UHGV virus genome: UHGV-0382740
Source: a virus
Reading direction: 5' to 3' (one strand)
DNA: 40,093 nt
The first letter of the stretch is position 1. Each line of letters begins with the position of its first letter. Positions 3,001-27,864 of this stretch are shown piece by piece. The position numbers and the translations under genes were made by a program. Below the pieces are notes generated by a model. The model was not told where the DNA came from. It saw nothing but the letters and a program-made list of their open reading frames with translations, and ran no database searches.

Positions 3001-3096
3001 TTTTTCCATCTGCTCCTGATATGGCTTCGTGTAAGCTTCTATGATAACTTTAAGCTTTTCAAGTGTTATTCCGCTTCCGTCCGTTATCCTCACCAC
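13..3096 (-). CDS. Tail tape measure protein, 1027 aa, complete with TAA stop at 13..15.
   Basis: It is very long and Ala/Gly-rich, with predicted transmembrane-like hydrophobic stretches and a Gly/Ser-rich linker. It has 44-aa internal tandem repeats (FFTELPGKIY...). It sits directly downstream of the G/GT chaperone pair. Confidence 0.85.
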   Translation of the reverse strand: MVRITDGSGITLEKLKVIIEAYTKPYQEQMEKVQAKTAQVTDRIARQTARIANSWKKVGAILASVLSIGAIVAFGKSCIDLGSDLAEVQNVVDVTFGSMSGKVNEFAQDAAKSFGLSETMAKKYMGTYGAMAKSFGITGKAGYDMSAAITGLTGDVASFYNLSQDVAYLKLKSIFTGETESLKDLGVVMTQTALDQYALNNGFGKTTAKMTEQEKVMLRYQFVMAQLSDASGDFARTSDSWANQVRVLTLRFESLKATIGQGLINAFTPVIQVINTIIAKLQVLASYFKAFTAALFGDASGGGDPVTDAADAMSNAVGSSGAVAGNMSDAAKSAKEMNKQLAGFDELNNLSSSRGSSGSGSGGAGGDIPDFGSMSGELFGDVTVNPEIEAAAQRIRDILNDLMAAADPTVEALKRLWDEGLSQLGNFAWTGLKDFWDYFLKPLGNWALGEGFPRFIDITNSFLTTINWTAINEALRNLWSVLEPFAQAVGEGLLDFYEDMAALGADFINVVVPGGIDALATAIGKIDPETARAIGYGIGAIATAMLAFKGLNTAVSVIKSFVAFLTGNKLVTGIKAIASAIAGSKLVEMLKLVAGGAGTLGEAFAACFPKLAAFASAIGTALGAIGSFVTGLSAASAAAIAVGAAIVAAVIAAVVAIILNWDKIVQFFTDTIPTWWTGTVVPFFEGIPAWFAGVWDTVSSYSIEKWNGLIDWFKGVPTSISRIINDIVKWFDGLPYKIGYAIGYAIGTIVDWVNNMITTVKEEVPKIIESVVNFFTELPGKIYEAIIKFKDNVVQWATETWNTFSEKVTEIIGNIVAFFTELPGKIYDAIIKFKDTIVQWATDAIGWVGTEVPKILNAIIDWFNKLPSKMIDIGKNILKGVWNGILSMGGWLKQKVNDFFGGIGDGIADAVGIGQGTSVEIVPVQKFAAGGFPNRGQLFIANESGPEMVGRIGGRSAVANKDQITDGIANAVYTANAEQNRLLREQNDLLRAILAKPGVNKDDVVDLWKSGAGEYRKKTGRQLGLAY
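579..860. repeat. About 132-bp tandem repeat inside the tape measure gene, about 2.5 copies.
   Basis: tgtctttgaacttaataattgcatcatatatttttccagg at 591..630 recurs as tgtctttaaatttaatgatagcctcatatatttttccagg at 723..762. The protein repeat is FFTELPGKIY(E/D)AIIKFKD. Confidence 0.7.
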
Positions 3097-3113
3097 CTTC
3101 CTGCGCTATATTT

Positions 3114-3566
3114 TCAGCTTAACCCCCGCCGCCTGCGCATCTCATTGTATCTTGCGGCATACTCCCTGCGTGATTCCCTGGCCCGTTCCAACTCCTCCGC
3201 CTTCTGCCGCTCTTCAAACGTTTTTTTCTCATCTGCAAACAATTCCGGGTATGCATCCCACACATGCGGCAGAGTTATTTCATTTTTATCATCAAACAGC
3301 TTCTGCATATGTATTCCCAAGAGATCCGCAAGCTGGAAGCGTGAGGATATTTCCTCCTTCACTCGCCGCTGTTCTTTCCGGGCGTATGACTCCATCAAGT
3401 CCCGGACCTCTCCAAGCGAATACTCCCAGAACTCCCCCGGTCTTATCCCGCAGTCTAGTGCTAAAGGATAAAGATCATAAATGAGATCGGATATGGTTAC
3501 ATCTCGTCCTTGAGATCCTCCCTCTTGTCCATCACACTCTCCCTCTGGTTCTCCGTAAAAAAACCA
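3114..3566 (-). CDS. Tail assembly chaperone -1 frameshift extension, gpT-like. It would be made as a G-T fusion.
   Basis: The -1 frame is open without stops from the T7 slippery site (plus 3557..3563) to the annotated 3114..3398 ORF. This is the canonical G/GT arrangement upstream of the tape measure gene. Confidence 0.55.
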   Translation of the reverse strand, partial: WFFYGEPEGECDGQEGGSQGRDVTISDLIYDLYPLALDCGIRPGEFWEYSLGEVRDLMESYARKEQRRVKEEISSRFQLADLLGIHMQKLFDDKNEITLPHVWDAYPELFADEKKTFEERQKAEELERARESRREYAARYNEMRRRRGLS

Positions 3567-3931
3567 CTCACCAGCATAATTTCCATGATGACATCAACCA
3601 TGAGGTCCATTTGGGTGCCGCCTTCATCCGCATACTGGTCATACAGGGCCTGTACATCCTTATATTTAACACCATGTTTCCAGGGCGTCATGGCCGCCTG
3701 AATCACAGTAAGCATGATTCCCAACTGTGGCAATCCACCACTCTGCATAATCAATGTCACCAGATTACAGCGGAATTTTTCTTCCAATTTACAAATCTGC
3801 TGGGTGGTAAGCTTAAGTTTGTAATCTTCTCCACCAACAGTCCAATATGCAAATGCCTTTCTTCTATTTTTAAGTTCTTCAACTGTTTCAACCTTTTTCT
3901 CGTTCTCTTCGTCCATTCCAAATTGTCCCAT
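3497..3931 (-). CDS. Tail assembly chaperone, gpG-like, 144 aa.
   Basis: Small acidic ORF between the major tail protein and the tape measure gene. It has an A7/U7 slippery run near its 3' end. Confidence 0.6.
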   Translation of the reverse strand: MGQFGMDEENEKKVETVEELKNRRKAFAYWTVGGEDYKLKLTTQQICKLEEKFRCNLVTLIMQSGGLPQLGIMLTVIQAAMTPWKHGVKYKDVQALYDQYADEGGTQMDLMVDVIMEIMLVSGFFTENQRESVMDKREDLKDEM

Positions 3932-3949
3932 ATTCCATTATCCTCCTTA

Positions 3950-4360
3950 TTATGTAGGGTCCGTCACGGTCAAATCGCTCTGTAATGATATTGCAAGATT
4001 AAATTCAATCACACCGTTTACTCCGCCACCAGTTCTTTTTACGGATACCTGTCCGTCAAATTCTGTTGTGGTACCGTCAATCAGTGTTTCCTGGAATGAC
4101 AATACCTCTCCTGCATCCTGTGCTGCCCTCATGACACGGTACGGGCAGTCAGCTTTGGAATTATCATACTTAAATTTGTATGTAATATCGCCAGCATCAC
4201 CAATACCATTTTCATACTGCTTATTTTTGTCAGTCAGACAGGTATTCTCTACCTTCTCTGGTTCAATACCCATTTCCGGAATTTCTTTAAGCCCTGGAAG
4301 GTCTGTAAATGTAGAGCCTCCTGACTTCTTATATCCCAATTTTGCGCCATTAGCTAACAT
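3950..4360 (-). CDS. Major tail tube protein, 136 aa.
   Basis: Position immediately upstream of the G/GT chaperones. It is small and Gly/Thr-rich, as tail tube proteins are. Confidence 0.55.
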   Translation of the reverse strand: MLANGAKLGYKKSGGSTFTDLPGLKEIPEMGIEPEKVENTCLTDKNKQYENGIGDAGDITYKFKYDNSKADCPYRVMRAAQDAGEVLSFQETLIDGTTTEFDGQVSVKRTGGGVNGVIEFNLAISLQSDLTVTDPT

Positions 4361-12964: not shown

Positions 12965-13375
12965 CTATTTTACGCCTAGTTTTTTTAAATACGCATCCCT
13001 TATACATTTACGAGGAAAATCCTCATTCTGCGGCATTCCAATTTTCTTTGCAATTGCCTTCCATGTTAGCCGATCCATATACCATAGTTTAAATACAGTC
13101 CGTGTCTGCCCATCTTCTATTGCTTCCAACCATGCCTTAATTTCTTCGGCCTCCTTTTTTTTTCTCTTGAGCAGATTCTCCTTCCTTGTATACTTTTCAC
13201 GATCAAACCCAACAATACTTTGAGGTTTTGGATATCCATCCCGATAATCGAGGATAGTGCTATTCCCCATTCCTGCATCTGTACTTATCATCTCTGACAG
13301 TTCAAATTCCAGACAGATAATATCCCACCTAAGTTTATTACGATAATTATCTAACCTCTTTTTTGTAATCTTCAA
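12965..13375 (-). CDS. Putative late-gene activator, sigma-70 region-4 / ArpU-like, 136 aa.
   Basis: C-terminal HTH (LTWKAIAKKIGMPQNEDFPRKCIRDAYLKKLG). Its position just upstream of the packaging module is typical for late activators. Confidence 0.45.
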   Translation of the reverse strand: MKITKKRLDNYRNKLRWDIICLEFELSEMISTDAGMGNSTILDYRDGYPKPQSIVGFDREKYTRKENLLKRKKKEAEEIKAWLEAIEDGQTRTVFKLWYMDRLTWKAIAKKIGMPQNEDFPRKCIRDAYLKKLGVK

Positions 13376-13388
13376 TTTCTAACTCCTC

Positions 13389-14134
13389 CTATACAGCCAC
13401 GCGCTCCCTGACGCTCCTAAGGGTATGTGGCGTTGACTGTGCATAATACTGCGATGTAACTGCCGGGCTGGCATGTCCCAGGACCTCCTGGATGGTTCCT
13501 ATATCCACACCCTTGTTTTTGAGGTTCATCCCCAGGGTTTTCCTCATTTTATGTGGATACACCCTACAGGTAAGACCGGCCCTTCTTCCTATGGCCTTCA
13601 TTATGCTCCGGTATGAGCATGTGGTCATCTTACCATAGGGTTTTCTGGTACGGGTGAACATATATGGACTATCATCTGTCCGCGTTTCTAGGTACATCTT
13701 ATAGTAATGTCTGGCATCATCATCCAGATAAAGGGTCCGATATTTCCCGCCCTTCTCGCCCCGGATCCAGATGTCTCCTGTTTCCAGATTAACCTGCTCT
13801 AAGGTGATCTCTGCAATCTCTCCCACCCTGGCACCAGTGCTGCGGAATACTTCGATGATAGTCCTTCGCGCCGTTCATACTGAGCCAAATACCACTCTAT
13901 ATCCGTTTCATCCACCTGGTCCAATGATTTATTATTAATGACCGTAATCAGCCGCTTAATTGCTCCCAGGTATCCTTCCATTGTACCGCGCTTAAGATTC
14001 CGTTTTTTAATCATAAAAAGCTGGATGAGGTACTTATTACGTTCTGCTATGCTGTCTTTCTGCTCTATATCTGCCAGGACAATATCGTCTGGCGGCGCTT
14101 TTTTCAACAGCGCAATTAATTCCCTTACCGTCAT
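13389..14134 (-). pseudogene. Small tyrosine recombinase (XerD/Rci-like) split by a frameshift into two ORFs: 13799..14134 (N-terminal SAM-like domain) and 13389..13826 (catalytic domain).
   Basis: The downstream frame reads RRTIIEVFRSTGARVGEIAEITLEQVNLETGDIWIRGEKGGKYRTLYL (box I, RxxE), then HKMRKT...LGHASPAVTSQYY (HxxR...Y). The reading frame changes within 13802..13874, and no slippery heptamer is present. Confidence 0.6.
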
Positions 14135-14156
14135 TGCTGTCTCCTTCCGAAAAATT

Positions 14157-14498
14157 CTAATTCTCCTGATCCAAGTTTAGTAATGCTAATATCTTCTCAA
14201 CAACGAACTTTGGAATATAAACAACTCCATTTTCTTCATTGGTGTCCAAATAATACGTCAAATCGGAAATAACTTGCGGGATTTTTTCTAGGGTATTAAT
14301 CGCTTCTTCGATAGCATAATCTTCAGGGTCTGGATATACATACCGACACCCATAAGACCACGTTGGAGCACCAACCATCTCTGCATAATCCTGTAATGGA
14401 TTTTGCATACCCTTTAGCAATTCTATTGCATCTTTCGGTTTCATATTTTCCTTTCTCCGGTCTCCCGGAAATGCTAATTTACGTTCTGTCCAGCCCAT
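14157..14498 (-). CDS. Hypothetical protein, 113 aa.
   Basis: ORF coupled to the upstream gene. No recognisable motifs. Confidence 0.3.
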   Translation of the reverse strand: MGWTERKLAFPGDRRKENMKPKDAIELLKGMQNPLQDYAEMVGAPTWSYGCRYVYPDPEDYAIEEAINTLEKIPQVISDLTYYLDTNEENGVVYIPKFVVEKILALLNLDQEN

Positions 14499-15151
14499 TG
14501 CTCTGCCATTGCATGGGCTATCCCAGGAAACGTCTTTGCTCTATTTTTAGCATCCTCTCCGCGTTTTGCTGCCCCGTATTTGCTCCTGTCTTTTCTACCG
14601 GTTCCGGCCGGCACATATGGCCCTATCGGAGTAACAATATCTGTTGGCACTAACGGTGGAAGCCCCCGCAACCACAACCTCGTTTTTTTTGTGTAGCGAT
14701 GTCCGAACTGCCAAGGTTGAATTTCCTGGCTATGTGGGGGCATGCGGAACACTGTACTTGACACTGGGTTTTCCACAGCTATCTTCGGACAGTCAGCATT
14801 CAGGAAGTGCAGAAAAAACTCTTTTGCCGCCAGCCCCTTTTTATATCGTTCCTGGTCAAGCTGTCCCTTTCTAGGATATAAGCGGCAAGCCCCTGCATTG
14901 CTTAAATATGTACACGGCGGAAAAGCAATAATCATATCCCACTGTATTTTCAGCAACTCCAAGGCATCCACCTGTAAATGCCACTCTGGATGCCCACCAG
15001 AACAGGATTCTATATCACAACTGTAAGCTTCATGTCCTAACCTTCGTAACTCATTCGTTACCGACTGCGATTCCTCACATGCTACTAAAATTTTCATATC
15101 TGAAAGGAGAAACCCGGATTTTATGCGGCCGCAACTCCGTCCTCCTTTCAT
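14474..15151 (-). CDS. Minimal C5-cytosine-methyltransferase-fold protein, 225 aa. It has PC and ENV motifs, but no canonical FxGxGG SAM loop and no target-recognition domain.
   Basis: FPPCTYLSNAG corresponds to motif IV (PCQ...S.AG). KIAVENPVSS corresponds to motif VI (ENV). TKKTRLWL corresponds to motif VIII. The motif I position reads ILVACEESQSV. Confidence 0.6.
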   Translation of the reverse strand: MKGGRSCGRIKSGFLLSDMKILVACEESQSVTNELRRLGHEAYSCDIESCSGGHPEWHLQVDALELLKIQWDMIIAFPPCTYLSNAGACRLYPRKGQLDQERYKKGLAAKEFFLHFLNADCPKIAVENPVSSTVFRMPPHSQEIQPWQFGHRYTKKTRLWLRGLPPLVPTDIVTPIGPYVPAGTGRKDRSKYGAAKRGEDAKNRAKTFPGIAHAMAEQWAGQNVN

Positions 15152-15161
15152 CGTTTAAATG

Positions 15162-15377
15162 TTAATACTGCTGATTATCATTTAACGGACAAATTCCAAT
15201 TACAGAACAAGATATACTGTCACACCATATCGGACATTTTTGGCAATAAGTTCCGTTAAAATCCTTAGGCACAACAACCGATATTGTCATTATCTTTTCA
15301 TCTTCTGTGATTTTTGAAATTTTACATTCATTACTTTTATCTGTTTCATACAAACCACCATTTTTTATAAATTTCAT
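15162..15377 (-). CDS. Small Cys-rich protein, 71 aa.
   Basis: CQKCPIWCDSISCSVIGICP cluster, ferredoxin- or zinc-ribbon-like. Confidence 0.3.
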   Translation of the reverse strand: MKFIKNGGLYETDKSNECKISKITEDEKIMTISVVVPKDFNGTYCQKCPIWCDSISCSVIGICPLNDNQQY

Positions 15378-15586
15378 ATTTTCTACCTCTGGAAAACTTA
15401 ATATCTCTTAAAAGTATCATCATAATCAAAGCAGTAGCAACTTGGGTGATTAACATCCACCTGTTCTCTTATATCAACATTACAAATTACCATTCCTTCT
15501 GTTTCTTTCTCACATTCACAATATATGCAATATTTACATATATATCTTTCTTCTGTCTTCTGGTATCATTCTTTATCCTCCAGATA

Positions 15587-15757
15587 CTAATCTTCAAAAC
15601 ATTTTTTTGTTTCCACTGGAACATCAAAAACACTTATCTTATTGCAATACCACTGCCCCCTATGGAATGCTTGTAGATTGCAGTGCCTACAATTTTCGCA
15701 GCTTTTTTCCCGTTTCTTTGTTTCAATAATCCCCAACAGCTCTTTGTTTTTAATCAT
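15587..15757 (-). CDS. Small Cys-rich ORF, 56 aa. It is not in the supplied track because it is under 60 aa.
   Basis: Manually translated as MIKNKELLGIIETKKREKSCENCRHCNLQAFHRGQWYCNKISVFDVPVETKKCFED. It has a CxxCxxC motif. Confidence 0.25.
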   Translation of the reverse strand: MIKNKELLGIIETKKREKSCENCRHCNLQAFHRGQWYCNKISVFDVPVETKKCFED

Positions 15758-15806
15758 ACCAATACCTCAAAATTCTAATTTTCATCGTTTAATACAATAT
15801 TTCCTT

Positions 15807-16532
15807 TCAGTCATTTATCCAGCCTATCCCCTGGCTAAGTAATTGGCAGGCTATCGTACAGTCTTCCATAACCTCCAGGTCCATCCTTCCACGGTTCGGG
15901 TCTAACTCGTCCAGATATACTCCCCCGATACAACTATGCCCTATCTCCCTCTCCTGCCTAGCCCGGCGTTCAAATACCTCCGGGAAATCAATCCGAATCT
16001 TATTCCAGTATCCCATGCCGCCTTTTACGCAACCAATGCAGTTGTTGTTTGGATACCCCATGTCATACATTACTGGGCGTTTCAGCCCCAGTTTATCGGC
16101 TATCCCGTGGCACTCTGCTTTTGTCAATCCATTCTCAATCAACGGGAACTCATGGTCGTAGTCAGAAAGCGCTTTAACAACTGCGTCTGCTCTGTGCATC
16201 TCATTCACATCATAACCCCACACATATGTATGATGGTCTGGATTCGCTGCCTCCCAGTCTCTGCGTACCTGTTTTTTCAACCATTTAGTGCAGGGTGCTC
16301 CAAAAGCTGTGTTTATGCATCTGGTATTTTCAATTACATCATCCACATCTTTGTATTTATCTGATTGTATAGGCTCAATCTTTCTTCCCAAAATCGCCTC
16401 GCAATCCTTCAAAAATCTCAGACTATCAGGATGTTGATTTTCGACATGAGTGTAAATAATTTTATCAATATCCTTAGCCAAGTAACACGCCACAAAAGAC
16501 GATACTCCGGTGCTAAACCAACATACTTTCAT
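15807..16532 (-). CDS. PP-loop ATP-pyrophosphatase / PAPS-reductase-like protein, 241 aa.
   Basis: The N-terminus MKVCWFSTGVSSFVA resembles a divergent SGGxDS PP-loop. Cys pairs (RCINTAFGAPC, CIGC) resemble the APS/PAPS reductase Fe-S ligands. Confidence 0.5.
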   Translation of the reverse strand: MKVCWFSTGVSSFVACYLAKDIDKIIYTHVENQHPDSLRFLKDCEAILGRKIEPIQSDKYKDVDDVIENTRCINTAFGAPCTKWLKKQVRRDWEAANPDHHTYVWGYDVNEMHRADAVVKALSDYDHEFPLIENGLTKAECHGIADKLGLKRPVMYDMGYPNNNCIGCVKGGMGYWNKIRIDFPEVFERRARQEREIGHSCIGGVYLDELDPNRGRMDLEVMEDCTIACQLLSQGIGWIND

Positions 16533-16683
16533 AGGTACCTCCTAAAATGAATAATTACTATTATCGCTCACCAGCGCTAATGTATTGACTGGTAAATCCT
16601 GTAATTTTACCATTCAGAAAGTGATCACTTTACCCGGCCAGGACTGTTTTACTTTCTATTTCTTTAATTGCTTAAATAGCGAT

Positions 16684-17088
16684 TTAGATGAATACTGCAT
16701 TTCCTACTTTCGCATGTACAAAATCAGCATCCAGCATTTCTTTCCACTGTTCTTTACTGACTTTCATATCAGCAAAAACTGTATAGTTACTTTCACACCA
16801 TTCACAAAGCTCGTCCAGTGTTTCAAAAACTGGGCTTACCGGGCTACCTTCCGTTGTGGTTTCCCAAAGCTGAAAACCTTCTCCTTTTGGTGGACCTAGA
16901 AACGGCTCAAAATCTGGGCAACCATAACTTGTTAAAGCAATTCCCTTTAAGGTCGCAAACCGTTTACAGTTATCGCAACCTCCCGCGCTATAATCACTGT
17001 CATGACAATAATTGGAATAATATCCATACCATATTGTATTAAGGGGCCAATCAAAATTTAATGGCACCCGTTTCAATGCTCTTCCCAT
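16684..17088 (-). CDS. Hypothetical Cys-containing protein, 134 aa.
   Basis: ORF with RBS. CHDSDYSAGGCDNCK motif. Confidence 0.3.
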   Translation of the reverse strand: MGRALKRVPLNFDWPLNTIWYGYYSNYCHDSDYSAGGCDNCKRFATLKGIALTSYGCPDFEPFLGPPKGEGFQLWETTTEGSPVSPVFETLDELCEWCESNYTVFADMKVSKEQWKEMLDADFVHAKVGNAVFI

Positions 17089-17438
17089 GCTTTCCCTCCT
17101 CGCTCCCCATAATCATGTTCTTTTTCCTCTTCCCAGATTACCTTAATAACCTCCACTTTATCGAGCGGAATGCAGAATGATCCTTGAGCATCCCACTCTC
17201 CAGCCTTCCACTGCTGTTCAAACTCTTCCAAACTATCAGCCAGCAAAAATCCGGCTTCCTCTTCTGTCTGGTACATAGTTCGCATCATTGCATCGTCCGA
17301 TTCATCCGGCCAGCTGAACAGATGATACATCTCGTAGTTGTCATAATCCCATAACGTTAACGCTACTACATACCCATCTATCGGCCATCCAGTGCTGTTT
17401 ACCCGTCCTTCAACGAGTTTTGGTCTATATCCCTTCAT
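17073..17438 (-). CDS. Hypothetical highly acidic protein, 121 aa.
   Basis: Strongly Asp/Glu-rich early-region ORF. Confidence 0.3.
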   Translation of the reverse strand: MKGYRPKLVEGRVNSTGWPIDGYVVALTLWDYDNYEMYHLFSWPDESDDAMMRTMYQTEEEAGFLLADSLEEFEQQWKAGEWDAQGSFCIPLDKVEVIKVIWEEEKEHDYGERGGKAWEEH

Positions 17439-17779
17439 CCCTCTGCCTCCTTATATGGATCCGGTGCTGGATGCCATGCAATCACATCAAGAAGTCCTTC
17501 ATCATCAACCTTCCACCATTCTTCTCTAACATCATCATAATATCCAACTTCAACATATCCACGTCTAACCGTAACGTGTACTATCTCTCCACACGGAGGA
17601 AGGTCCCTTTCAACCGGAACCCACTTATTCTCTGTTTTTGCGGTTGGAATTTTTCTTATATCCTCGATTATGTACTCTTCTCCCTCATATCTTGCAATAA
17701 GCAGTTTTTTTACATCATCCGAATCAATTAGTCTTCCCATTCTGCTTCCTCCTCTAAATCTGTGTTTAGTCCATCTCAT
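17435..17779 (-). CDS. Hypothetical protein, 114 aa.
   Basis: ORF overlapping neighbours in an operon. Confidence 0.3.
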   Translation of the reverse strand: MRWTKHRFRGGSRMGRLIDSDDVKKLLIARYEGEEYIIEDIRKIPTAKTENKWVPVERDLPPCGEIVHVTVRRGYVEVGYYDDVREEWWKVDDEGLLDVIAWHPAPDPYKEAEG

Positions 17780-17996
17780 CTCTTATCTCTCTTAAGGTAT
17801 CCAGCGCGCTATCCAGATCATTGATTGCATCCTGGAAATCTGGTATTACTGATTTTAAGCTGTCCTTCGTTATTTTCCGATATCCAAACAGTTTATCCGC
17901 TTCGGCTGCAAATTCCGGCCCTATCTTGTCCGACATGATTCTTATGCAATCTTCCCATGTCTGGATGTTTTCCCATTGTCCGTCAATTTGTATCAC
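17766..17996 (-). CDS. Hypothetical protein, 76 aa.
   Basis: ORF in the early operon. Confidence 0.25.
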   Translation of the reverse strand: MIQIDGQWENIQTWEDCIRIMSDKIGPEFAAEADKLFGYRKITKDSLKSVIPDFQDAINDLDSALDTLREIRDEMD

Positions 17997-18182
17997 CTTT
18001 CATTCACTCCTTTTCTAAATGGGCATTTTGATTACTTGGACGTCTGGAATGATCCGGGCATATTTCCGTCCTATCATAGGCTGGACGTAGATATGCTTGT
18101 GTCATGGGCGATGGATGTTTTTCCATGTCTTTTATTGCTGCCATCCTTTGACGTTCAGATTTTTCTGCACATTGATCATCTT

Positions 18183-18971
18183 TCATTCCGATGCTTCTCC
18201 CTTATGTATCTCTGCCAGGATCTCCCCAACAGCCTTTGCAAATTCACGTTTTAGGGCTGGGATGTTGTCAATCAACTCACCATTAGTTACCTTACGCTTG
18301 ATTCCTGTCCTTTTCCTATATTCGGACTCGTAATCCTCATAATTGACCTTATTTTTTCTTAATCTGGCCTTCACCACAACGTATGTGGCGCATCCAAAAT
18401 TTGTTGTATCTCCTCTGGCATCAATAAGCGGCTGTATAATTTCCTGTCTGGTCTTTCCCATCTCCGCCTCCTGGGCCATCCGGCGCCGCTCCATCTCCTT
18501 ACGGCTGTCCTCCTCCAGGTTAGAGAGGATAGGCTCAAACAATGATCGCAGTTTTTCATCTTCGGATATCACCTCCAGGCATGAGGCTTTCTCAGCCCCT
18601 GTAGCGTACTTATAATCCTTAATGGCCTGTTCCGATACAAAGCCATATACGTCACGCATTTTCCGATATATTCGGGTCAGAACATTGTTGAAATCTGAAT
18701 ACAGTTCCGGGTAGTCCTTAACCATCCTATCCACCCTGCGGCGTATCTCAATCTTCCAGGTATATGCTTCCGATATGGTTTCCTGTTTTCTGGGCTTATC
18801 ATCATCCCTTTCCAGAAGCTTAATAATTTTCTCCTGATTGTTCTGTACTGCCCGGAACTTAGCTTCCATAACGGTTATCATATCCGCTCTCAGTTCCGCA
18901 AATTTTCGGTCTATGTAAGACCGATCTAAAAACAATGCACTCCTCTCATTTGGTTTCCCCATATCAATCAT
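18183..18971 (-). CDS. Hypothetical protein, 262 aa.
   Basis: Large ORF translationally coupled to the DnaC-like gene. Confidence 0.35.
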   Translation of the reverse strand: MIDMGKPNERSALFLDRSYIDRKFAELRADMITVMEAKFRAVQNNQEKIIKLLERDDDKPRKQETISEAYTWKIEIRRRVDRMVKDYPELYSDFNNVLTRIYRKMRDVYGFVSEQAIKDYKYATGAEKASCLEVISEDEKLRSLFEPILSNLEEDSRKEMERRRMAQEAEMGKTRQEIIQPLIDARGDTTNFGCATYVVVKARLRKNKVNYEDYESEYRKRTGIKRKVTNGELIDNIPALKREFAKAVGEILAEIHKGEASE

Positions 18972-19819
18972 CTTCCTCTCATTCCGTCTATAAGCGCCTT
19001 CCTGTTCTGCTCCGCTATCAAGTCCCTAACCGATTCTTCTGGGAATGGCAGCTGGAAGGTACGCTCCTTAATTCTGTTTGTTATCCTGTCATCGTATCTC
19101 AAATCCTGTAGGCACAGATTACTGGTGTATATGGTAATCAGCTTGTCCTGATATCGGCCATTAATAATGCTATAAAATCGCTCTCCAATCCAGTCCTTTG
19201 GCAGCTCAGTGCCAAAATCATCTATCACCAGGACCTGGACCGTGGACAATGCCCTTAGTAGGTCGCTCTCACTTCTGTCTTTGTCATCCCATGTGGCCTT
19301 TATCTCGTTGATAATCTGCATGGAACCAGCAAACTTAACCTGCATCCTGTATGTACTGACCATCTCGTTTGCTATGCTTGCGGCCATCCGTGTCTTGCCT
19401 GACCCTTTAGTCCCGGAATATAAGTACAGCCCCATCCCGTCCTTACGCATACCTTCCAGGTTGTCCAGGTAATATTTTATGGCAGCGCATGTATTAGCAA
19501 TCGCCTTTCTGCTGCCCTCATTGCGGTATACATCCAGCCTGAAGGACCGTATATCCAGCGTCTTGAATGCCTCAGGGATGTTTGCGAACTCCAGCTTACG
19601 TTCCATAATCTGGCGCTCTACCAATCCACATCCACATCTCCGGCCATACTCAATGCCATTGTTATCTCGCCAGTATATCCAGCCGCTCCCATGACATACG
19701 GGGCAGATATCAGAAACCGGTAAATCCTTCTCCGGCTCCTTCGAGGTAGTCAGCATCGTACTTCTGCGTTCCCCCTGTATGCGGTTGACCATTTCCTGCA
19801 ACGGGTCCACCATTTCCAC
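18968..19819 (-). CDS. DnaC/IstB-like helicase loader ATPase, 283 aa.
   Basis: Walker A (GTKGSGKTRMA), Walker B (LVIDDFG), and an N-terminal Cys4 zinc finger. Confidence 0.75.
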   Translation of the reverse strand: MEMVDPLQEMVNRIQGERRSTMLTTSKEPEKDLPVSDICPVCHGSGWIYWRDNNGIEYGRRCGCGLVERQIMERKLEFANIPEAFKTLDIRSFRLDVYRNEGSRKAIANTCAAIKYYLDNLEGMRKDGMGLYLYSGTKGSGKTRMAASIANEMVSTYRMQVKFAGSMQIINEIKATWDDKDRSESDLLRALSTVQVLVIDDFGTELPKDWIGERFYSIINGRYQDKLITIYTSNLCLQDLRYDDRITNRIKERTFQLPFPEESVRDLIAEQNRKALIDGMRGR

Positions 19820-20498
19820 CTCCTACATAATTTGCATCCAGATAATCCACATATCCGCTGTTGAAGAACGTGCTTCCGTTCTGCGGTTTTCTCCAGGACG
19901 CATCCCGCCTAAGGTCATCCTTGTACCGTTCAATTGACCTCATAAGCTCATCCTTCCCAACCTTTAGAAGCTTCTGTTTCTGGGTATCGGATACTTGCCC
20001 TTTCCCCTTCTTGCATGGATACAATTTCCACAGGGTTTCAAACAAGGCAGATGCCTGCTGTTTCCTGTCATCGGATGCACTATATATATTATCTTCTTTC
20101 TTTATTTCTTTATTTCTTTCTTCTATTGTTGTCGTTCGTTTGTCGTTAGAATGTCGCTCGCCTGTCGCCTGGGTGTCATCCTGCCTGTCATCTGACTGAT
20201 ACAAATCATAGTTTTTTATTGTAAATACGCTATATTTGTTTGTCGCCTTGCTTGTCACTTCGCCTGTCGTTTTTAGGTGGGAAATTCCGGTCCTAACCTC
20301 CCGTTCTGTAAGCCCTGTCTCATATGCAAGGTTCTTGATAGACGATACAAAGGAACCACGCGGAACCGTTGTGCCCATGAATTTTCCATCCTTCCAGTTG
20401 GCCTTAAGGAGCATATGGATGAACAGCACCTTCGTGTTGATATCCTGATACCATCCCCAATCCAGAAACTTACGAAACAGTTTGATGTGTCCATCCAT
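19710..20498 (-). CDS. Replisome organiser / DnaD-like replication initiator, 262 aa.
   Basis: The N-terminal domain (IKLFRKFLDWGWYQDINTKVLFIHMLLKANW) is typical of phage replisome organisers. Iterons are embedded in its linker region. Confidence 0.6.
   Translation of the reverse strand: MDGHIKLFRKFLDWGWYQDINTKVLFIHMLLKANWKDGKFMGTTVPRGSFVSSIKNLAYETGLTEREVRTGISHLKTTGEVTSKATNKYSVFTIKNYDLYQSDDRQDDTQATGERHSNDKRTTTIEERNKEIKKEDNIYSASDDRKQQASALFETLWKLYPCKKGKGQVSDTQKQKLLKVGKDELMRSIERYKDDLRRDASWRKPQNGSTFFNSGYVDYLDANYVGGGNGGPVAGNGQPHTGGTQKYDADYLEGAGEGFTGF
20086..20195. repeat. Putative origin of replication: six 11-bp-spaced TGTC(G) iterons at 20130..20189, plus an adjacent polypyrimidine AT-rich tract at 20086..20127.
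   Basis: TGTC recurs at 20130, 20141, 20152, 20163, 20174 and 20186. Confidence 0.5.
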
Positions 20499-20512
20499 AC
20501 ATGATTCCCTCC

Positions 20513-20902
20513 TTAAAGCTCCTCTATCGTCACTTCAATGCGAGGCACCCCGGATGTGTATTCAAACTCGTGTGTGGTGTTCTTCATATGGGACGGGTCA
20601 TCATCACTCAGAACTCCGCATTTCACCAGGGCATCCTCAATCACCTTGTCCGCAAAGGAAAAGACATTCATCACGTCACGCCTACGTCCTTTTGCTGGCT
20701 CATAGAAACTGTAATGGAGGATGACCGGACCATTGGCCTTATACCGCTTCAAATCCCTCCTGATGGCATTGCTGGCAACCATCATATAATCACGTTTAAG
20801 CCGGCCGCCTGCATGTGGGTTCCTCCCAAGCTCCGCTATGTACTCATTCAGACCCGGAAATGTCCTGTCCTTGTAATAAGTTCCTGAAATAATGAATTTC
20901 AT
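20513..20902 (-). CDS. RusA-like Holliday junction resolvase, 129 aa.
   Basis: DVMNVFSFADKVIEDALVKCGVLSDDDPSHM resembles the RusA catalytic acidic motif. Size and synteny fit. Confidence 0.55.
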   Translation of the reverse strand: MKFIISGTYYKDRTFPGLNEYIAELGRNPHAGGRLKRDYMMVASNAIRRDLKRYKANGPVILHYSFYEPAKGRRRDVMNVFSFADKVIEDALVKCGVLSDDDPSHMKNTTHEFEYTSGVPRIEVTIEEL

Positions 20903-21186
20903 AGATAGCTCTCCCCATATCTTCTCCGAAAATTTTCACGGTTCCCAATATATGCCTCATAGGCAAGCTGCCCCATCATCTTCGACATCTTCTCAGCCTT
21001 TGGGTTCCCATGGATTTTCTCAGTATTCCTACCCAAGGTATGACAGTCTGCACAGCAAGGGACTATCAATCCATCTTCATCCGCTAACTTCCTGCGGCCA
21101 TTCCCATAAATGAGATGATGTTCTATATTTGTTGGCTTACCACAAAAAATGCAAATGTTATTATACTCCGTCACAATCCCTGGCAC
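20899..21186 (-). CDS. HNH endonuclease, 95 aa.
   Basis: CIFCGKPTNIEHHLIYGNG...CCADCH is an HNH zinc motif. Confidence 0.6.
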   Translation of the reverse strand: MPGIVTEYNNICIFCGKPTNIEHHLIYGNGRRKLADEDGLIVPCCADCHTLGRNTEKIHGNPKAEKMSKMMGQLAYEAYIGNRENFRRRYGESYL

Positions 21187-21187
21187 T

Positions 21188-21985
21188 TTACACCTCCGTC
21201 ATAAGCTCAGAATAATGGATGGGGTGTGTGAGCACCTTTGTATGCTTACAGTAATCACACATCTCACACCGCAAAGGCTCAAACTCACCGGCCTTCAATG
21301 CATTGATTTTTGCAACATTGCTCTGCACCTCAATTAATTTTTCCTGCAGGTGTGCATCATCAATCCCAATGATTTCTATATCAGGCTCCTTCTCTTTACT
21401 TGCCACGGCAATGAAGAACGGCAATGTCTTGCCTGTGTTCTGGCGGACAATCTCCTGATACACGGCGCCTTGGATGTCATAACCCCAGTACTGAACAAAA
21501 TCCATGTATCCTACATCACGTACCCAGAATGTATCGCGGATGGACTTCATGACTTTCAGGTCCACGATGCATACATCCGGGATGAAGCTGTCCAGTTTGA
21601 CCTTCCAGAGCGTCCCACCTATCTCCCCGGTCATGATGACCTGCTTCTGGCCCCCCATGTACTTCATGAAATATTCATCCCGTTCTATCCGGTTGATGAT
21701 TTCCTCCGCATGACGGTATTCCGTCTTTAGCACACCCTGTTTCGTGAAGATTTCTGGATTCTGGGCCTTAAAGAGGTTGAGTGTCCCCTCAAAGTGGGCA
21801 TCCACATACGCCCCGACCATAAGTGCCACGGTCTTCTCCATCTCCCATTCCCCACGTAATTTCGCAAGGGCCTGGGCCTCGCATGGGATTTTACCCATGC
21901 TGCCACAGAATTCCTTATATTGGCTGACCGACATGTAAGCCTGGTTGGCCTCCTGGCTGTAATAGTTCTCTGCTGTCAATATCAT
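21188..21985 (-). CDS. PD-(D/E)XK (Cas4/RecB-like) exonuclease with a C-terminal Cys cluster, 265 aa.
   Basis: DLKVMK matches the D-x-K motif. CEMCDYC at the C-terminus is Fe-S-like, as in Cas4. Confidence 0.6.
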   Translation of the reverse strand: MILTAENYYSQEANQAYMSVSQYKEFCGSMGKIPCEAQALAKLRGEWEMEKTVALMVGAYVDAHFEGTLNLFKAQNPEIFTKQGVLKTEYRHAEEIINRIERDEYFMKYMGGQKQVIMTGEIGGTLWKVKLDSFIPDVCIVDLKVMKSIRDTFWVRDVGYMDFVQYWGYDIQGAVYQEIVRQNTGKTLPFFIAVASKEKEPDIEIIGIDDAHLQEKLIEVQSNVAKINALKAGEFEPLRCEMCDYCKHTKVLTHPIHYSELMTEV

Positions 21986-22632
21986 TTAAAGCGCTCCTCT
22001 CCTTCTGGTGGTATGAAGGGGTCAACCATGGCAGGCTTATCCCCTTTCGTCATGTCATCTGCTTCCCCTTCAACGTGACACCCCATAAGGGCATTCGGAA
22101 TATATACCCTGGCAAAGAAGGCAGCCGCACGATAGGCAAGCATCTGCTTAGGCATGGTCTTCCATTTGCTCCCGGGCTTTCCGTACCATTCCTCAGCCTT
22201 CGCCATCTGTATGGTCACCTCTGTCCCGTTGATGATTTCCCCTGTCTTCCTGTCCTCCGCCTGGATATAGCATCCCCAGGTATCTGTATATGGTTCACCC
22301 GTGTATACAGGACGTGCGTCTTTGAATTCATGGCAGGCCCTTATCATGCTCATGCAGGCCTGTCCGCTCCACGATGGTTTCCCTTTCACTACATACAGGT
22401 TCTGCATCACGAACATGGGGTTGACATTCATCCTGTTCGCCATGTCAACAGCAATTGTACAATCCATTGGCTTCCCTTGATATGCTGCCGGAACAAGGGA
22501 TGAAGACGCGAACATCTTCCCTATGTCATATAATTTCTGGAAACTCTGTGAGTTTGAAAACGGTGTTGCCACCTCATGCTTCTGGTCATTCACCACTATT
22601 TCTTCCATTGTCATCCTCCTACAATTCCACAA
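21982..22632 (-). CDS. RecT/Redbeta-like single-strand annealing protein, 216 aa.
   Basis: Synteny between the ATPase and the exonuclease. Weak RecT-like conserved stretches. Confidence 0.5.
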   Translation of the reverse strand: MWNCRRMTMEEIVVNDQKHEVATPFSNSQSFQKLYDIGKMFASSSLVPAAYQGKPMDCTIAVDMANRMNVNPMFVMQNLYVVKGKPSWSGQACMSMIRACHEFKDARPVYTGEPYTDTWGCYIQAEDRKTGEIINGTEVTIQMAKAEEWYGKPGSKWKTMPKQMLAYRAAAFFARVYIPNALMGCHVEGEADDMTKGDKPAMVDPFIPPEGEERFK

Positions 22633-24058
22633 CAGTCAAATCCGCATCATCAGTTGTGCGTGTTGCGATAAACTGCAGCCCCTTGTCCTTACACTTGCGG
22701 TAAAGTTCATTCCGCATGTCGGTTGACAGCTTTTCCACCCCGTCAATCAGTATGATTTGCAGACCATTCGGTTTCTGTATTGCCACATCAATGCACAGGT
22801 CCAGTTTTTCTCCATCAGACAGGTTACTGATGGGAAGCCCGTGAATTAACGGGATTCCATTCTTGACCGTAAGCCCATCAATCGGTATCCTGGCCTCCTG
22901 CAGGATTTCCCCAGGAAGGGACCTGGCCTTCTCAATCCTATCCGTCAGGGACTTTGCTTCTTCTGACAGCTTCGACACCTCCCCCTGGAGGGATTCCATG
23001 CGGCGGTATTCATTCAGGTGGCCTTTCATCTGCTCAGCATACTCTGCCTTTTCCATCAGCTCCGTGGTACTTCCGGGCTCCTTAGTGGCATACTCTTCGT
23101 ACTGTGACAGCTCTGCATCATATTTTGATACATTGGCTTTATATGTCTGTTCAGCCAAATCAATCTTGTCCTGTTTCTTTTCCCCAAGACCGGACAGCTC
23201 TTTTTTGCAAGAGCGTATCTGTTCCTCCAGTGAGGCAATCTGTTCCTTGAGCCCAGTCTCACGCCGTGCAAACTCCTTCTCGATGGCAGATATCTCAATT
23301 TCCCGGTCAGCTTCATAAGCCCTCAGTTTGTTGCTCCTGTTCTCCAGCATCCTTTTTGCCTTGTCTATGGTCTCATTATCCTTACGGATTTTTTCAATCT
23401 CCCGGTAGAGCTCCCCAACATTCTCGCGTTCCCAGCGGTCCGCCTCGTATCCTGCCGGGATTGTATCGGAAATATCCGCGATGAAAGCCCTCTTATTCCT
23501 TATGTCCCGGTTAATATCCTGCCGGTGCTGGAAGTACCATCCATTTTCCGCCTGGATGTCGTTGAGTACCTGGAGAATGTTCTGGTCATAGGAAACCCAG
23601 TCAGGTATCTCACCAAACCATTCCCGTATCTTGTTCATGTCCCATGGGTACTCAATCATATCCAGAATGATGGCGTTCTGCTGTTTCCTATCCATCTCCA
23701 TGAATTCAACCGGAGAAAGCTGAAGGGGGGTAAAGATGTCCCGCAGAAAAGTCTCCGGGCTTCCTACCTCATAGCCGTCTTTCTTCACACTCTTATAATC
23801 TGCCTGTGCGGTACGGGCTTTACGGTTAATCCGTATACCATCGTCAGTCTCAATGAGGATTTCCCCCTCAGTTTCTCCGTCCCTTACTATGTAGTCACGG
23901 CCAGATTTGTTCGTGAGACCGTACCGGATTGCGTCAATCACGGAAGTCTTACCAGCTCCATTCCTTCCATCCAGTTCAACGCTCTGTCCATTGGCCTCGT
24001 ACTCCTTTATCCCAAATAAGTTCTTAATCTTGATTTTTGATATCCTCATGCTTGCCAT
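22619..24058 (-). CDS. SbcC/SMC-like AAA ATPase, 479 aa.
   Basis: N-terminal Walker A (GRNGAGKTSVIDAIRYGL), a long coiled coil, and C-terminal LQIILIDGVEKL (Walker B / D-loop). Confidence 0.7.
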   Translation of the reverse strand: MASMRISKIKIKNLFGIKEYEANGQSVELDGRNGAGKTSVIDAIRYGLTNKSGRDYIVRDGETEGEILIETDDGIRINRKARTAQADYKSVKKDGYEVGSPETFLRDIFTPLQLSPVEFMEMDRKQQNAIILDMIEYPWDMNKIREWFGEIPDWVSYDQNILQVLNDIQAENGWYFQHRQDINRDIRNKRAFIADISDTIPAGYEADRWERENVGELYREIEKIRKDNETIDKAKRMLENRSNKLRAYEADREIEISAIEKEFARRETGLKEQIASLEEQIRSCKKELSGLGEKKQDKIDLAEQTYKANVSKYDAELSQYEEYATKEPGSTTELMEKAEYAEQMKGHLNEYRRMESLQGEVSKLSEEAKSLTDRIEKARSLPGEILQEARIPIDGLTVKNGIPLIHGLPISNLSDGEKLDLCIDVAIQKPNGLQIILIDGVEKLSTDMRNELYRKCKDKGLQFIATRTTDDADLTVVEL

Positions 24059-26347: not shown

Positions 26348-26472
26348 CATAATTCTCTTACTGGGTTTGCTTCCAAAAGATATATTTTGCTTCGCAACCA
26401 AATTATATCATCTCTGGAGCATCCTGGCAAGGGGTGTATTTTTTATGCCGATTTTCAAGGAGGAATGATATA

Positions 26473-27864
26473 ATGGCAACCGCAGTACCCTATAAAGACA
26501 AGGATGGAAACATCATCTCCTATCAGATTCAGGTCTTCCGTGGCCGCGACAATGCTGGTAAGAAGCTTAAACCATACACAGAGAGCTGGAAAGTACCTCA
26601 GACATATAAATCTGAGAAGGCAATCAAAAAAGCCCTAGAAAAGGAAATGGGAGCGTTTGAGGCCAAATGTAGAGAAGGCCGAGTATCGATGGAAAACAGT
26701 ACGCTATCAGAATACTGTCGGCGCTATATTGAACTTAAAAGCGGAAACAAGAAAAAATCTGTTGCTTTCTATGAATCCCTCATGCCAAGAATAGATGCTG
26801 AGATAGGTTCCATCCGGCTGGATAAGCTGAAAGCAAAACATCTGGATGACTTTTACATCAAGCTCCAAAAACCGGAATCACGTAAGGATGTCAAGGCTGT
26901 CGCCAATGACAAACTTCTTGCTGAACGTAACCGCCAGAAACTCACGAACAAGGCCCTGGCCGATGCTGCCGGAATCTGTTCTAACACAGTCACTCTTGCA
27001 ATTCAAAAACATAATCTGAATATCGAGACCGCCCGGAAACTATCAGCTGCTCTTGGAAAGGATATTTCAGAGTTATTTGATATCATCTCGCCTGGTGGAG
27101 AAGATGGATTATCCGCTAAAACAATCCACCACTACCACACCTTTTTACATTCTGTATTAGAGATGGCCCGCACAAAGGAAAACCTTGCTTTTAATGCCGC
27201 TTCTGCTGCCACAGCCCCCTCAGTTATTCACAAAGAAGCTGAATTTTTTGAGATTGACGAAATCATTCAAATTAGACAAGCTTTGGAGAGGTATCCCTTT
27301 AAATATCGTATTATGATCTGCCTGCTGGCTGATACTGGAATACGGCGTGGCGAACTTTTTGGCATCCGCTGGTCAGTAATCTCTTTCGACCGGAATGAGA
27401 TTCTAATAAACAGAAACATTCAACGGATAAAGAATCTTGGACTATTCGCAGATACACCCAAAGGACGCCGCTCACGCACTATCCACATATCAGATGAGAT
27501 GGCAGCCTTGCTACAGGAATATAAAACTTATCAAGAAAAGGAGAGGGAATATATTGAAATCCCAGATTACAATATGGAGGGATATTTATTCATTCAGGAA
27601 AATGGTACCGTGATGGATCCTAACAGCCTAAACATCTGGACCAAGAAATTTGAGAAGGCTGAAGGGTTACCGCACGTTTACCCTCATAAGTTCCGGCATT
27701 CCCAGGCCAGCATCCTGTTGTACTCAGGAATAGATATTGTAACCGTTGCTGCACGTCTGGGGCATAACCAAACCAGTACCACGACTGATATATATGGGCA
27801 CGTCCTTCAAAAGGCAGATCATCATGCTTCCGATATGATTGCCCAGGCCCTATATGGGAAATAA
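26473..27864 (+). CDS. Tyrosine integrase, 464 aa from the ATG at 26473 with an AAGGAGG RBS.
   Basis: C-terminal HKFRHSQASILLYSGIDIVTVAARLGHNQTSTTTDIYGHV (HxxR...Y) and box I RRGELFGIRW. There is an internal HTH-like insert, LTNKALADAAGICSNTVTLAIQKHNL. Confidence 0.85.
   Translation: MATAVPYKDKDGNIISYQIQVFRGRDNAGKKLKPYTESWKVPQTYKSEKAIKKALEKEMGAFEAKCREGRVSMENSTLSEYCRRYIELKSGNKKKSVAFYESLMPRIDAEIGSIRLDKLKAKHLDDFYIKLQKPESRKDVKAVANDKLLAERNRQKLTNKALADAAGICSNTVTLAIQKHNLNIETARKLSAALGKDISELFDIISPGGEDGLSAKTIHHYHTFLHSVLEMARTKENLAFNAASAATAPSVIHKEAEFFEIDEIIQIRQALERYPFKYRIMICLLADTGIRRGELFGIRWSVISFDRNEILINRNIQRIKNLGLFADTPKGRRSRTIHISDEMAALLQEYKTYQEKEREYIEIPDYNMEGYLFIQENGTVMDPNSLNIWTKKFEKAEGLPHVYPHKFRHSQASILLYSGIDIVTVAARLGHNQTSTTTDIYGHVLQKADHHASDMIAQALYGK

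Follow-up and report, generated by a model that had tools for sequence, protein, structure and literature searches.

Do neighboring genes for a methyltransferase-like and a reductase-like protein in a gut prophage form a dedicated pathway for an unusual DNA modification, or are they independent of each other? The question is raised by the minus-strand genes at positions 14157 to 16532 of the virus genome UHGV-0382740, analyzed here as a stretch of 40,093 nt to which we refer as the window. One of these genes (14474..15151) encodes a mini C5-cytosine-methyltransferase-fold protein, here called the mini-methyltransferase, and another (15807..16532) encodes a 241-aa protein of the PP-loop type that is related to 3'-phosphoadenosine 5'-phosphosulfate (PAPS) reductases and to SspD, here called the PptA-like protein after its solved homolog PptA. 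An earlier note on this DNA had proposed that the 2 enzymes, together with 2 small cysteine-rich proteins, represent a novel DNA-modification module. The explanation that we favor, with moderate confidence, is that they are encoded by 2 independent accessory genes, which share an insertion slot for anti-restriction and modification genes.

Lack of consistent linkage between the 2 genes

The linkage of the genes was examined in 80 viral loci anchored on PptA-like genes, in 80 viral and 80 bacterial-genome loci anchored on mini-methyltransferase genes, in 46 control loci, and in 7 loci with relatives of the PAPS domain of a fusion protein described below. Of the 80 PptA-like loci, 4 had a mini-methyltransferase gene at a distance of up to 8 kb, all of them from a single lineage of approximately 120-kb contigs, as compared with 1 of the 46 controls (Fisher p = 0.65). 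Conversely, a PptA-like gene was found near the mini-methyltransferase gene in none of the 80 viral loci and in 1 of the 80 genomic loci, while a PF01507-type PAPS reductase gene was found there in 2 and 4 loci, respectively. Genes of any PAPS-superfamily type were thereby present near 7 of the 160 mini-methyltransferase genes, versus 2 of the 46 controls (Fisher p = 1.0). The order and spacing of the co-occurring pairs varied among the window, the L006 group and L227, the PAPS partners fell into 2 subfamilies, the PptA type and the PF01507 type, and both genes neighbored ordinary methyltransferase genes more often than each other.

The closest relatives of either gene were found without the other. 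No PAPS-like gene was present in the 9.2-kb stretch around the methyltransferase-like gene of phiCs5676-1, which is the closest phage relative and encodes a homolog of 88% identity. Likewise, the closest relatives of the PptA-like gene (84% to 92% identity) lacked a mini-methyltransferase gene, as did the genome of Vibrio phage vB_VhaP_VH-5, in which PptA stands alone, and loci with a late regulator of 80% to 85% identity contained neither gene. Furthermore, the 2 small cysteine-rich ORFs (open reading frames) were found in none of 286 related loci. Because the co-occurrence was at background level, the gene order variable, the closest relatives without partners and the cysteine-rich ORFs restricted to one lineage, a dedicated 2-enzyme module is not supported.

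A methyltransferase fold with a probably remodeled cofactor site

The mini-methyltransferase corresponds to EHE99266.1, which carries the public label "DNA (cytosine-5-)-methyltransferase". Its ORF comprises 225 aa, but the product probably starts at M19 (15097) and consists of 207 aa, since nearly all homologs of 80% to 90% identity are 205 to 209 aa long and open with MKILVACEESQ. Neither of the 2 candidate ATG codons has a well-spaced ribosome-binding site. All of the ORFs and motifs listed in the earlier note are present, with this start and an ENV motif that in fact reads ENP as the corrections.

The protein matched the PHROG 757 profile (E = 3.9e-54; residues 17 to 222 against profile positions 13 to 221 of 247) and is a typical full-length member, which nothing sets apart from the rest of the family. 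The name of PHROG 757, "DNA methyltransferase", is an annotation from remote homology. With 4,367 clusters at 50% identity, the family extends to phages of Flavobacterium, Vibrio, Cellulophaga, Pseudomonas, Ruegeria, Arthrobacter, Pelagibacter, and cyanobacteria, and to genomes across many phyla.

The mini-methyltransferase has a class I methyltransferase catalytic-domain fold with C5-methyltransferase topology; in the predicted structure, a strand at residues 2 to 6 is followed by a helix at residues 8 to 19, and the best structural match was to DNMT3B. A search of the PDB with the single sequence was negative, and a search with the family profile recovered no S-adenosylmethionine (SAM) methyltransferase. 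When the family profile was compared by hhalign with a profile of 13 canonical C5 methyltransferases, the motifs III to VIII were aligned with a probability of 46% (E = 2e-4), whereas the comparison with M.HhaI alone gave a probability of 2.5%, and a usable alignment was obtained only from the 13-enzyme profile. The earlier assignment to this fold was upheld, with no match to PF00145.

The conservation of the motifs was counted in 150 diverse representatives of the family, some of which lack the N-terminus. The sequence ACEESQ (15065..15082, minus strand) is located at the junction of strand beta1 and helix A, in the position of the FxGxG loop that binds SAM (motif I), and contains no glycine. 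This motif reads x-C-E-x-S/T-x in all of the 130 representatives with an N-terminus, none of which is glycine-rich, and C7-E8 is invariant. In a global hhalign alignment, ACEESQ coincided with the FAGLGG loop, and D28 and D44 with E40 and D60 of M.HhaI, respectively. Motif II, S26-C27-D28 at the end of strand beta2 (15014..15022, minus strand), reads S-x-D in 132 of 133 representatives; D28, which aligns with the SAM ribose-binding acid E40, is invariant, and the motif III aspartate D44, corresponding to the adenine contact, is mostly conserved.

The catalytic cysteine of motif IV is found in P60-P61-C62 (14912..14920, minus strand), which aligns with the PC of M.HhaI and reads PPCT in 134 of 150 representatives, and the equivalent of motif VI (ENV) is E109-N110-P111 (14765..14773, minus strand), with ENP in 139 of 145. 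The motif VIII-like TKKTR pointed out previously, T136-K-K-T-R140 (14678..14692, minus strand), does occupy the motif VIII position, but K137 and T139 alone are conserved within it, and the arginines of QxRxR are not kept in the consensus of the family, K-x-T-C/L-L-W. At the position of motif X, the canonical F-G-N-x-V is replaced by F-P-G-I-A (14516..14530, minus strand), so that the SAM-contacting asparagine is a glycine; this placement is based on a manual alignment of RSKTFPGIA...QW to M.HhaI, as the global hhalign alignment stopped short of motif X. The slot for the target-recognition domain (TRD) between motifs VIII and IX has only about 40 residues (145 to 185), which are variable in sequence and in part modeled with low confidence (means of 57, 49, and 59 for the 10-residue blocks at approximately residues 160 to 190, and values below 50 for residues 176 to 184). 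Invariant residues specific to the family are H40, Q124, K137, T139, and W142.

In comparison with the C5-cytosine DNA methyltransferases of PF00145, such as M.HhaI, the prophage Dcm enzyme 3g7u and DNMT3A/B, the mini-methyltransferase thus shares the fold, the Pro-Cys and Glu-Asn motifs, the motif II acid, and the motif III aspartate. It differs in the presence of Cys-Glu in place of the glycine-rich motif I, of PG for GN in motif X, and in the unconserved motif VIII arginines. Moreover, it is only about 205 aa long, as compared with at least 270 to 330 aa, its TRD slot is reduced to some 40 residues, and it falls below all Pfam, NCBIfam, and PDB sequence thresholds. The DNA cytosine C5-carboxymethyltransferase solved in complex with carboxy-SAM (Cx-SAM; PDB 8yf3) is also among the closest known systems.

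The description of the protein as a TRD-poor C5-methyltransferase fold that retains its nucleophile and has no glycine-rich motif I was accordingly confirmed, and was found to apply to the whole family. As judged from their sequences, thousands of phage "methyltransferases" have an invariant Cys-Glu where canonical enzymes have the SAM glycine loop, and almost no TRD, which is a family-level anomaly. The further claim that the SAM site is lost went too far, since only the motif I glycines and the motif X asparagine are gone. With D28 invariant, D44 mostly kept and C7-E8 invariant, the cofactor pocket looks remodeled under selection rather than decayed.

It was also noted that residues 27 to 40 (14978-15019), between strands beta2 and beta3, resemble a zinc knuckle with the spacing C27-x4-C32-x3-H36-x3-H40 (SCDIESCSGGHPEWH). 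This spacing is kept in the subgroup with ACEESQ and absent in the subgroup with ACEYSG, and its location is that of the SAM adenine contacts in canonical enzymes.

None of the neighboring gene families recurred in more than 15 of the 80 mini-methyltransferase loci. A PF05869 Dam gene was located directly downstream of the mini-methyltransferase gene in 8 of the 80 loci (for example L116), a pattern that is expected of orphan methyltransferases in phages and fits a protective role. Two cases of phage methyltransferases from the literature were considered for comparison and rejected. Pseudomonas phage Boevelstad, with a predicted methyltransferase and no detectable modification motif (PMC11780129), might have offered a natural test, but its 150-aa protein is unrelated to the family, and the methyltransferases of Sinorhizobium phages, at about 700 aa, are not relevant (PMC5537653).

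A fusion of the 2 gene types

Among the long family members, the extra regions in P0316, P0317, P0313, P0320, P0377, and P0247 matched nothing, and the only informative fusion was that of P0359/P0511. The corresponding tandem and fusion genes were identified at L165, positions 1150-4336 of a 53-kb contig (Logan SRR33675028), and in P0359 (ENA). The first gene at L165 encodes a 470-aa protein with 2 tandem, fully typical mini-methyltransferase domains. The next gene, with which it overlaps by 26 nt, encodes a 599-aa protein in which a PAPS_reduct domain with a canonical PP-loop (SFSGGKDS) is fused to a third mini-methyltransferase domain. In this third domain, C7, E8, and D28 are all lost (VIGDTQQ and SCT), while PPC and ENP are kept. 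The joint loss of the 3 residues in the degenerate domain suggests that they form one functional unit, such as a working cofactor site. The tandem-domain protein and the DNMT3B-like structure suggest that the stand-alone mini-methyltransferases work as dimers. In the 7 loci with its nearest relatives, the PAPS domain occurs by itself, without a mini-methyltransferase gene within 4 kb, and the fusion is thus a local event. The arrangement at L165 recalls that of DNMT3A and DNMT3L.

A PptA-like protein of the PAPS reductase type

The 241-aa protein (EHE99269.1) belongs to PHROG 424 and is labeled in public records as a PAPS reductase domain-containing protein. It is 40% identical over residues 3 to 231 to PptA of Vibrio phage VH-5 (PDB 21fy chain C; QGH73774.1; E = 2.4e-49). 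The fold is that of PAPS and adenosine 5'-phosphosulfate (APS) reductases, which gave the best structural matches, at 8% to 17% identity to CysH and APR. There was no match to PF01507 even at E 0.1, and the ECGLH motif is absent, the tail reading MEDCTIAC. The best match to a defense system was to the SspD profile of PADLOC (residues 11 to 196; E = 2.4e-9), which at 35 bits is weak and for which there is no curated cut-off, and the DndC profile gave no match. The view of the protein as a divergent PAPS-reductase or PP-loop type with conserved cysteines was retained.

The PP-loop-like motif, S7-T-G9-V-S11-S12 after strand beta1 (16497..16514, minus strand), is conserved to at least 95% at S7, G9, S11, and S12. 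The earlier note had remarked on its non-canonical form (STGVSS), which is nothing unusual for P-loops of PAPS-reductase-type proteins; among the homologs, the pattern S-x-G-x-S-S is conserved. The most conserved block of the family is N162-N-N-C165-I-G-C168 (16029..16049, minus strand), and 5 cysteines are universally conserved, namely C165, C168, C81, C225, and C229. These residues represent a candidate iron-sulfur (Fe-S) or metal site and, in addition, a cysteine in the tail.

The S-x-G-x-x-S loop, the NNNC-x-GC block and the equivalents of C81, C225, and C229 are common to the window protein and PptA, whereas C201 is not, and PptA is encoded by a lytic phage of the Autographiviridae rather than by a prophage of the Bacillota. 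In VH-5, the pptA gene immediately follows that of the phage RNA polymerase and precedes the structural genes. With the PP-loop enzymes of DNA phosphorothioation, SspD, DndC, and BrxP, the window protein shares the superfamily fold, and its conserved cysteines are compatible with an Fe-S center, but its PP-loop reads STGVSS and not SGGxDS, the second glycine and the aspartate being missing. No SspA/B/C, DndA/D/E or BREX partners were found among the annotated genes of the prophage, in VH-5, or among the recurrent neighbors in the 80 loci. Although the assimilatory PAPS and APS reductases (CysH and APR) are closest in fold, the low identity, the lack of a PF01507 match and of ECGLH, and a gene context of phage DNA metabolism distinguish the window protein from them.

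No neighboring gene family was present in more than 25 of the 80 PptA-like loci. A canonical PF00145 C5 methyltransferase of about 506 aa was encoded approximately 2 kb upstream of the PptA-like gene in 18 of the 80 loci (for example L036-L046). At L003 (3745-5711), the PptA-like gene (236 aa) is immediately preceded by a gene for a PF01507-type PAPS reductase (367 aa), the 2 paralogs being in tandem, and genes for a reverse transcriptase (RVT_1) and a DUF4317 protein are located about 1.5 to 3.7 kb upstream of this pair. Seven ORFs next to the gene in the window were compared with PDB sequences as candidates for the partner proteins of the 21fy complex, and gave chance matches only. A full-text search of the literature recovered no paper on PptA or its stand-alone phage homologs, and papers on Dnd, on BREX type 4, and on Sinorhizobium meliloti prophages were silent about stand-alone phage homologs.

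The statement that the locus could not be matched to a described system has therefore been superseded by PHROG 757 and 424, the public labels, and the solved homolog PptA. Since each gene is a member of a catalogued, automatically annotated family, and one of them has a solved homolog, whose function is probably transferable to gut prophages, the locus does not represent a new system.

Inferred roles and alternative explanations

From the observed fold, motifs, conservation, and gene linkage, we infer the following substrates, cofactors, and biological roles for 2 independent accessory proteins. By analogy with canonical C5 methyltransferases, the mini-methyltransferase would flip a cytosine out of the DNA, with Cys62 as the nucleophile that attacks C6 and Glu109 as the proton donor for N3. 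The remodeled pocket of C7, E8, D28, and D44 would accommodate a cofactor that contains adenosine, in the simplest case SAM. The enzyme would be dimeric and show little sequence specificity, in the manner of the DNMT3 catalytic domain with its small TRD, and the outcome would be a broad C5 marking of the phage DNA, probably with methyl groups, that allows escape from host restriction. The PptA-like protein probably binds nucleotides and depends on an Fe-S center or thiols, and its substrate would be nucleic acid, modified by adenylation or sulfur transfer, rather than an intermediate of sulfate assimilation; such a sulfur- or adenylate-dependent role is plausible in view of the SspD match, and would be exerted without a phage-encoded partner, as it must be in VH-5.

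Several observations weigh against this explanation. To our knowledge, the loss of every motif I glycine together with the motif X asparagine and the motif VIII arginines is unprecedented in an active C5 DNA methyltransferase, and in view of these losses the use of SAM can only be presumed. The mini-methyltransferase matched no entry in Pfam, including PF00145, or NCBIfam at E <= 0.1, and we know of no demonstrated activity for any member of either family, nor was one reported in the literature searched. The function of PptA, which is evidently known to the depositors of 21fy, could overturn the role suggested for the 241-aa protein. With regard to linkage, the 46 controls, anchored on prophage RusA or a sigma-like regulator, are a small set with many near-duplicates. 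The genes were within 600 nt of each other in 3 of the 7 co-occurring pairs, which is significant under a uniform null (p = 0.012) but not under the assumption that accessory genes are limited to approximately 4 kb (p = 0.35). The fusion in the L165 lineage, finally, fits an occasional functional coupling of the 2 gene types, which is possible.

The most serious competitor, although we consider it unlikely, is a stand-alone enzyme that works without SAM or with another cofactor and retains the covalent Cys-C6 chemistry. Such an enzyme might deaminate C to U, add an aldehyde to yield 5-hydroxymethylcytosine, transfer a group from another adenosyl cofactor, or carry out a thiol or redox step with C7 and C62. 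In line with this, canonical C5 methyltransferases promote cytosine deamination in the absence of SAM and can add exogenous aldehydes. The glycine-less motif I with its invariant Cys-Glu in 130 of 130 representatives, the replaced motif X asparagine and motif VIII arginines, and the family-specific residues H40, Q124, K137, T139, and W142 all speak for it, as do the lack of matches between the family profiles and SAM methyltransferases in the PDB or Pfam and an N-terminal third that remains outside the significant local hhalign match. The invariant D28 and the mostly kept motif III aspartate are, on the other hand, what a bound adenosine moiety would lead one to expect, and a mutagenic deaminase is hard to reconcile with its presence in thousands of temperate and lytic phages without a repair or immunity partner. 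We regard it as improbable to a greater degree that the mini-methyltransferase, the PAPS-reductase-like protein and possibly the small cysteine-rich proteins jointly make a non-methyl C5 or thio modification, whereby the methyltransferase-fold protein would flip and activate the pyrimidine through Cys62 and the PP-loop enzyme would supply an adenylated or sulfur-containing group. The PAPS_reduct fusion in one phage lineage provides residual support for this scheme, against which stand the background-level co-occurrence (7 of 160 versus 2 of 46, and 4 of 80 versus 1 of 46), the variable order and spacing, the 2 PAPS subfamilies that serve as partners, the nearest relatives of either gene without the other, the cysteine-rich ORFs that are conserved nowhere else, and the absence of C7, E8, and D28 from the fused methyltransferase domain. 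A bolder version, to which we assign a lower probability still, is that the clade of PHROG 757 with the "Cys-Glu loop" is a new class of enzymes directed at C5/C6 of cytosine in DNA, with a cofactor other than SAM or with none, physically coupled in some phages to a PAPS-reductase-type PP-loop ATPase to produce a non-methyl or sulfur-containing pyrimidine, and that the window contains its unfused version. In that case, L165 suggests how the coupling might be achieved, through active domains in tandem and a PP-loop enzyme to which a degenerate, DNMT3L-like domain is attached by fusion.

It is very unlikely that the mini-methyltransferase is catalytically dead and serves as a DNA-binding regulator, as a decoy for restriction or defense, or as a DNMT3L-like partner of a host methyltransferase. 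The missing TRD, the non-canonical SAM loop and the known degenerate copy at L165 would agree with a dead protein, but the catalytic cysteine, the ENP glutamate and about 15 other positions are invariant in 48 representatives with 41% to 57% identity to the window protein (37% mean column identity), which fits an enzyme better than a scaffold, and the degenerate copy is visibly unlike the window protein. There is hardly any probability left for the 241-aa protein as an auxiliary metabolic CysH that boosts sulfur assimilation of the host. PHROG 424, the public records and the structural matches all point to PAPS or APS reductases, and the conserved cysteine in a flexible C-terminal tail (E-D-C225) is reminiscent of the tail cysteine of CysH. 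These similarities are outweighed by the missing PF01507 match at E 0.1, the identity of 8% to 17%, the absence of ECGLH, and the closer profile match to SspD, as well as by a location among genes for DNA metabolism and modification, the position of the VH-5 gene after the phage RNA polymerase gene, and the choice of the name PptA, not CysH, by the depositors.

What is at stake is the reliability of 2 common labels: in the annotations of thousands of phage and prophage genomes from many phyla, members of PHROG 757 routinely pass as DNA methyltransferases, and the "phage PAPS reductase (cysH)" routinely counts as an auxiliary metabolic gene. Were the mini-methyltransferase active as such, no smaller C5 DNA methyltransferase would be known, SAM binding would be possible without a glycine-rich loop, and the protein would provide a minimal scaffold for epigenome tools and help to predict which restriction systems gut phages evade. 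Were it not a methyltransferase, a very common phage annotation would be wrong, with new DNA chemistry to be found. The architecture of L165 offers a concrete and testable hint of coupling to PP-loop enzymes.

Genomic context of the prophage

The window contains a prophage of the siphovirus type whose genes are on the minus strand, and the 5 ORFs of the region are identical in sequence to EHE99265-EHE99269 of Enterocloster ([Clostridium]) citroniae WAL-17108 in public records. The integrase gene is located at 26434-27864 on the plus strand, and the early genes at 18968-24058 encode an SbcC-like ATPase, RecT, an exonuclease, RusA, and DnaD-like and DnaC-like loaders. They are followed by a stretch of small accessory genes (13389-18971), with a sigma-like regulator (12965-13375) downstream of it, past which lie the genes for TerS/TerL, the portal, the head proteins and capsid, and the tape measure. 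The region is thus a variable early ("nin-like") stretch between the replication and recombination genes and the late regulator and terminase. Phages often house methyltransferases and other accessory genes between the replication and late genes, and the recurrence of PF05869 Dam and PF00145 genes beside homologs of both genes is consistent with a variable accessory-gene region. Scans for promoters and terminators in 13300-17200 revealed nothing that exceeded the shuffled expectation, and thus provided no operon boundaries.

The remaining ORFs of the region are small and on the minus strand. A hypothetical phage protein (14157..14498; EHE99265.1, "Phage protein") without a family match has an ORF of 113 aa, whereas its public homologs are 90 to 95 aa long (start at 14444). 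The 2 cysteine-rich ORFs consist of 71 aa (YCQKCPIWCDSISCSVIGIC; 15162..15377; EHE99267.1), without a family match, and of 56 aa (CENCRHC...YC...KC; 15587..15757; EHE99268.1). The latter is zinc-ribbon-like, the sole hint being a weak match to the L37ae zinc ribbon (E = 0.008). Their clusters contain 20 and 5 sequences, respectively, and all members with a named source are from E. citroniae; the 2 ORFs are probably lineage-specific fillers. It was also noted that positions 15001-16000 have the lowest GC content of the prophage part (0.366, versus approximately 0.41 to 0.51 in the other 1-kb windows of positions 1-25000). The low GC content over both cysteine-rich ORFs and the 209-nt gap that separates them would agree with filler DNA of recent acquisition.

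Upstream of the PptA-like gene, 3 more small ORFs are found on the minus strand (16684-17088, 17073-17438, and 17435-17779), of which one is cysteine-rich without a family match, one belongs to phrog_17337 and one is DUF551-like (phrog_15198/924). None of them is conserved beside the mini-methyltransferase or the PptA-like gene. In addition, a second tyrosine recombinase is split over 2 reading frames at 13389-13826 and 13799-14134 on the minus strand, with an N-terminal SAM-like domain in an ORF of 111 aa and the catalytic domain in an ORF of 145 aa. Since a tblastn match crosses the boundary of the 2 ORFs, a frameshift or pseudogene is likely. The intact integrase of L002 was considered as a close relative of the split recombinase, which the comparison did not bear out. 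In related phages, an intact integrase of 348 aa is encoded at a similar position, among the early and accessory genes and near the methyltransferase-like or PptA-like gene.

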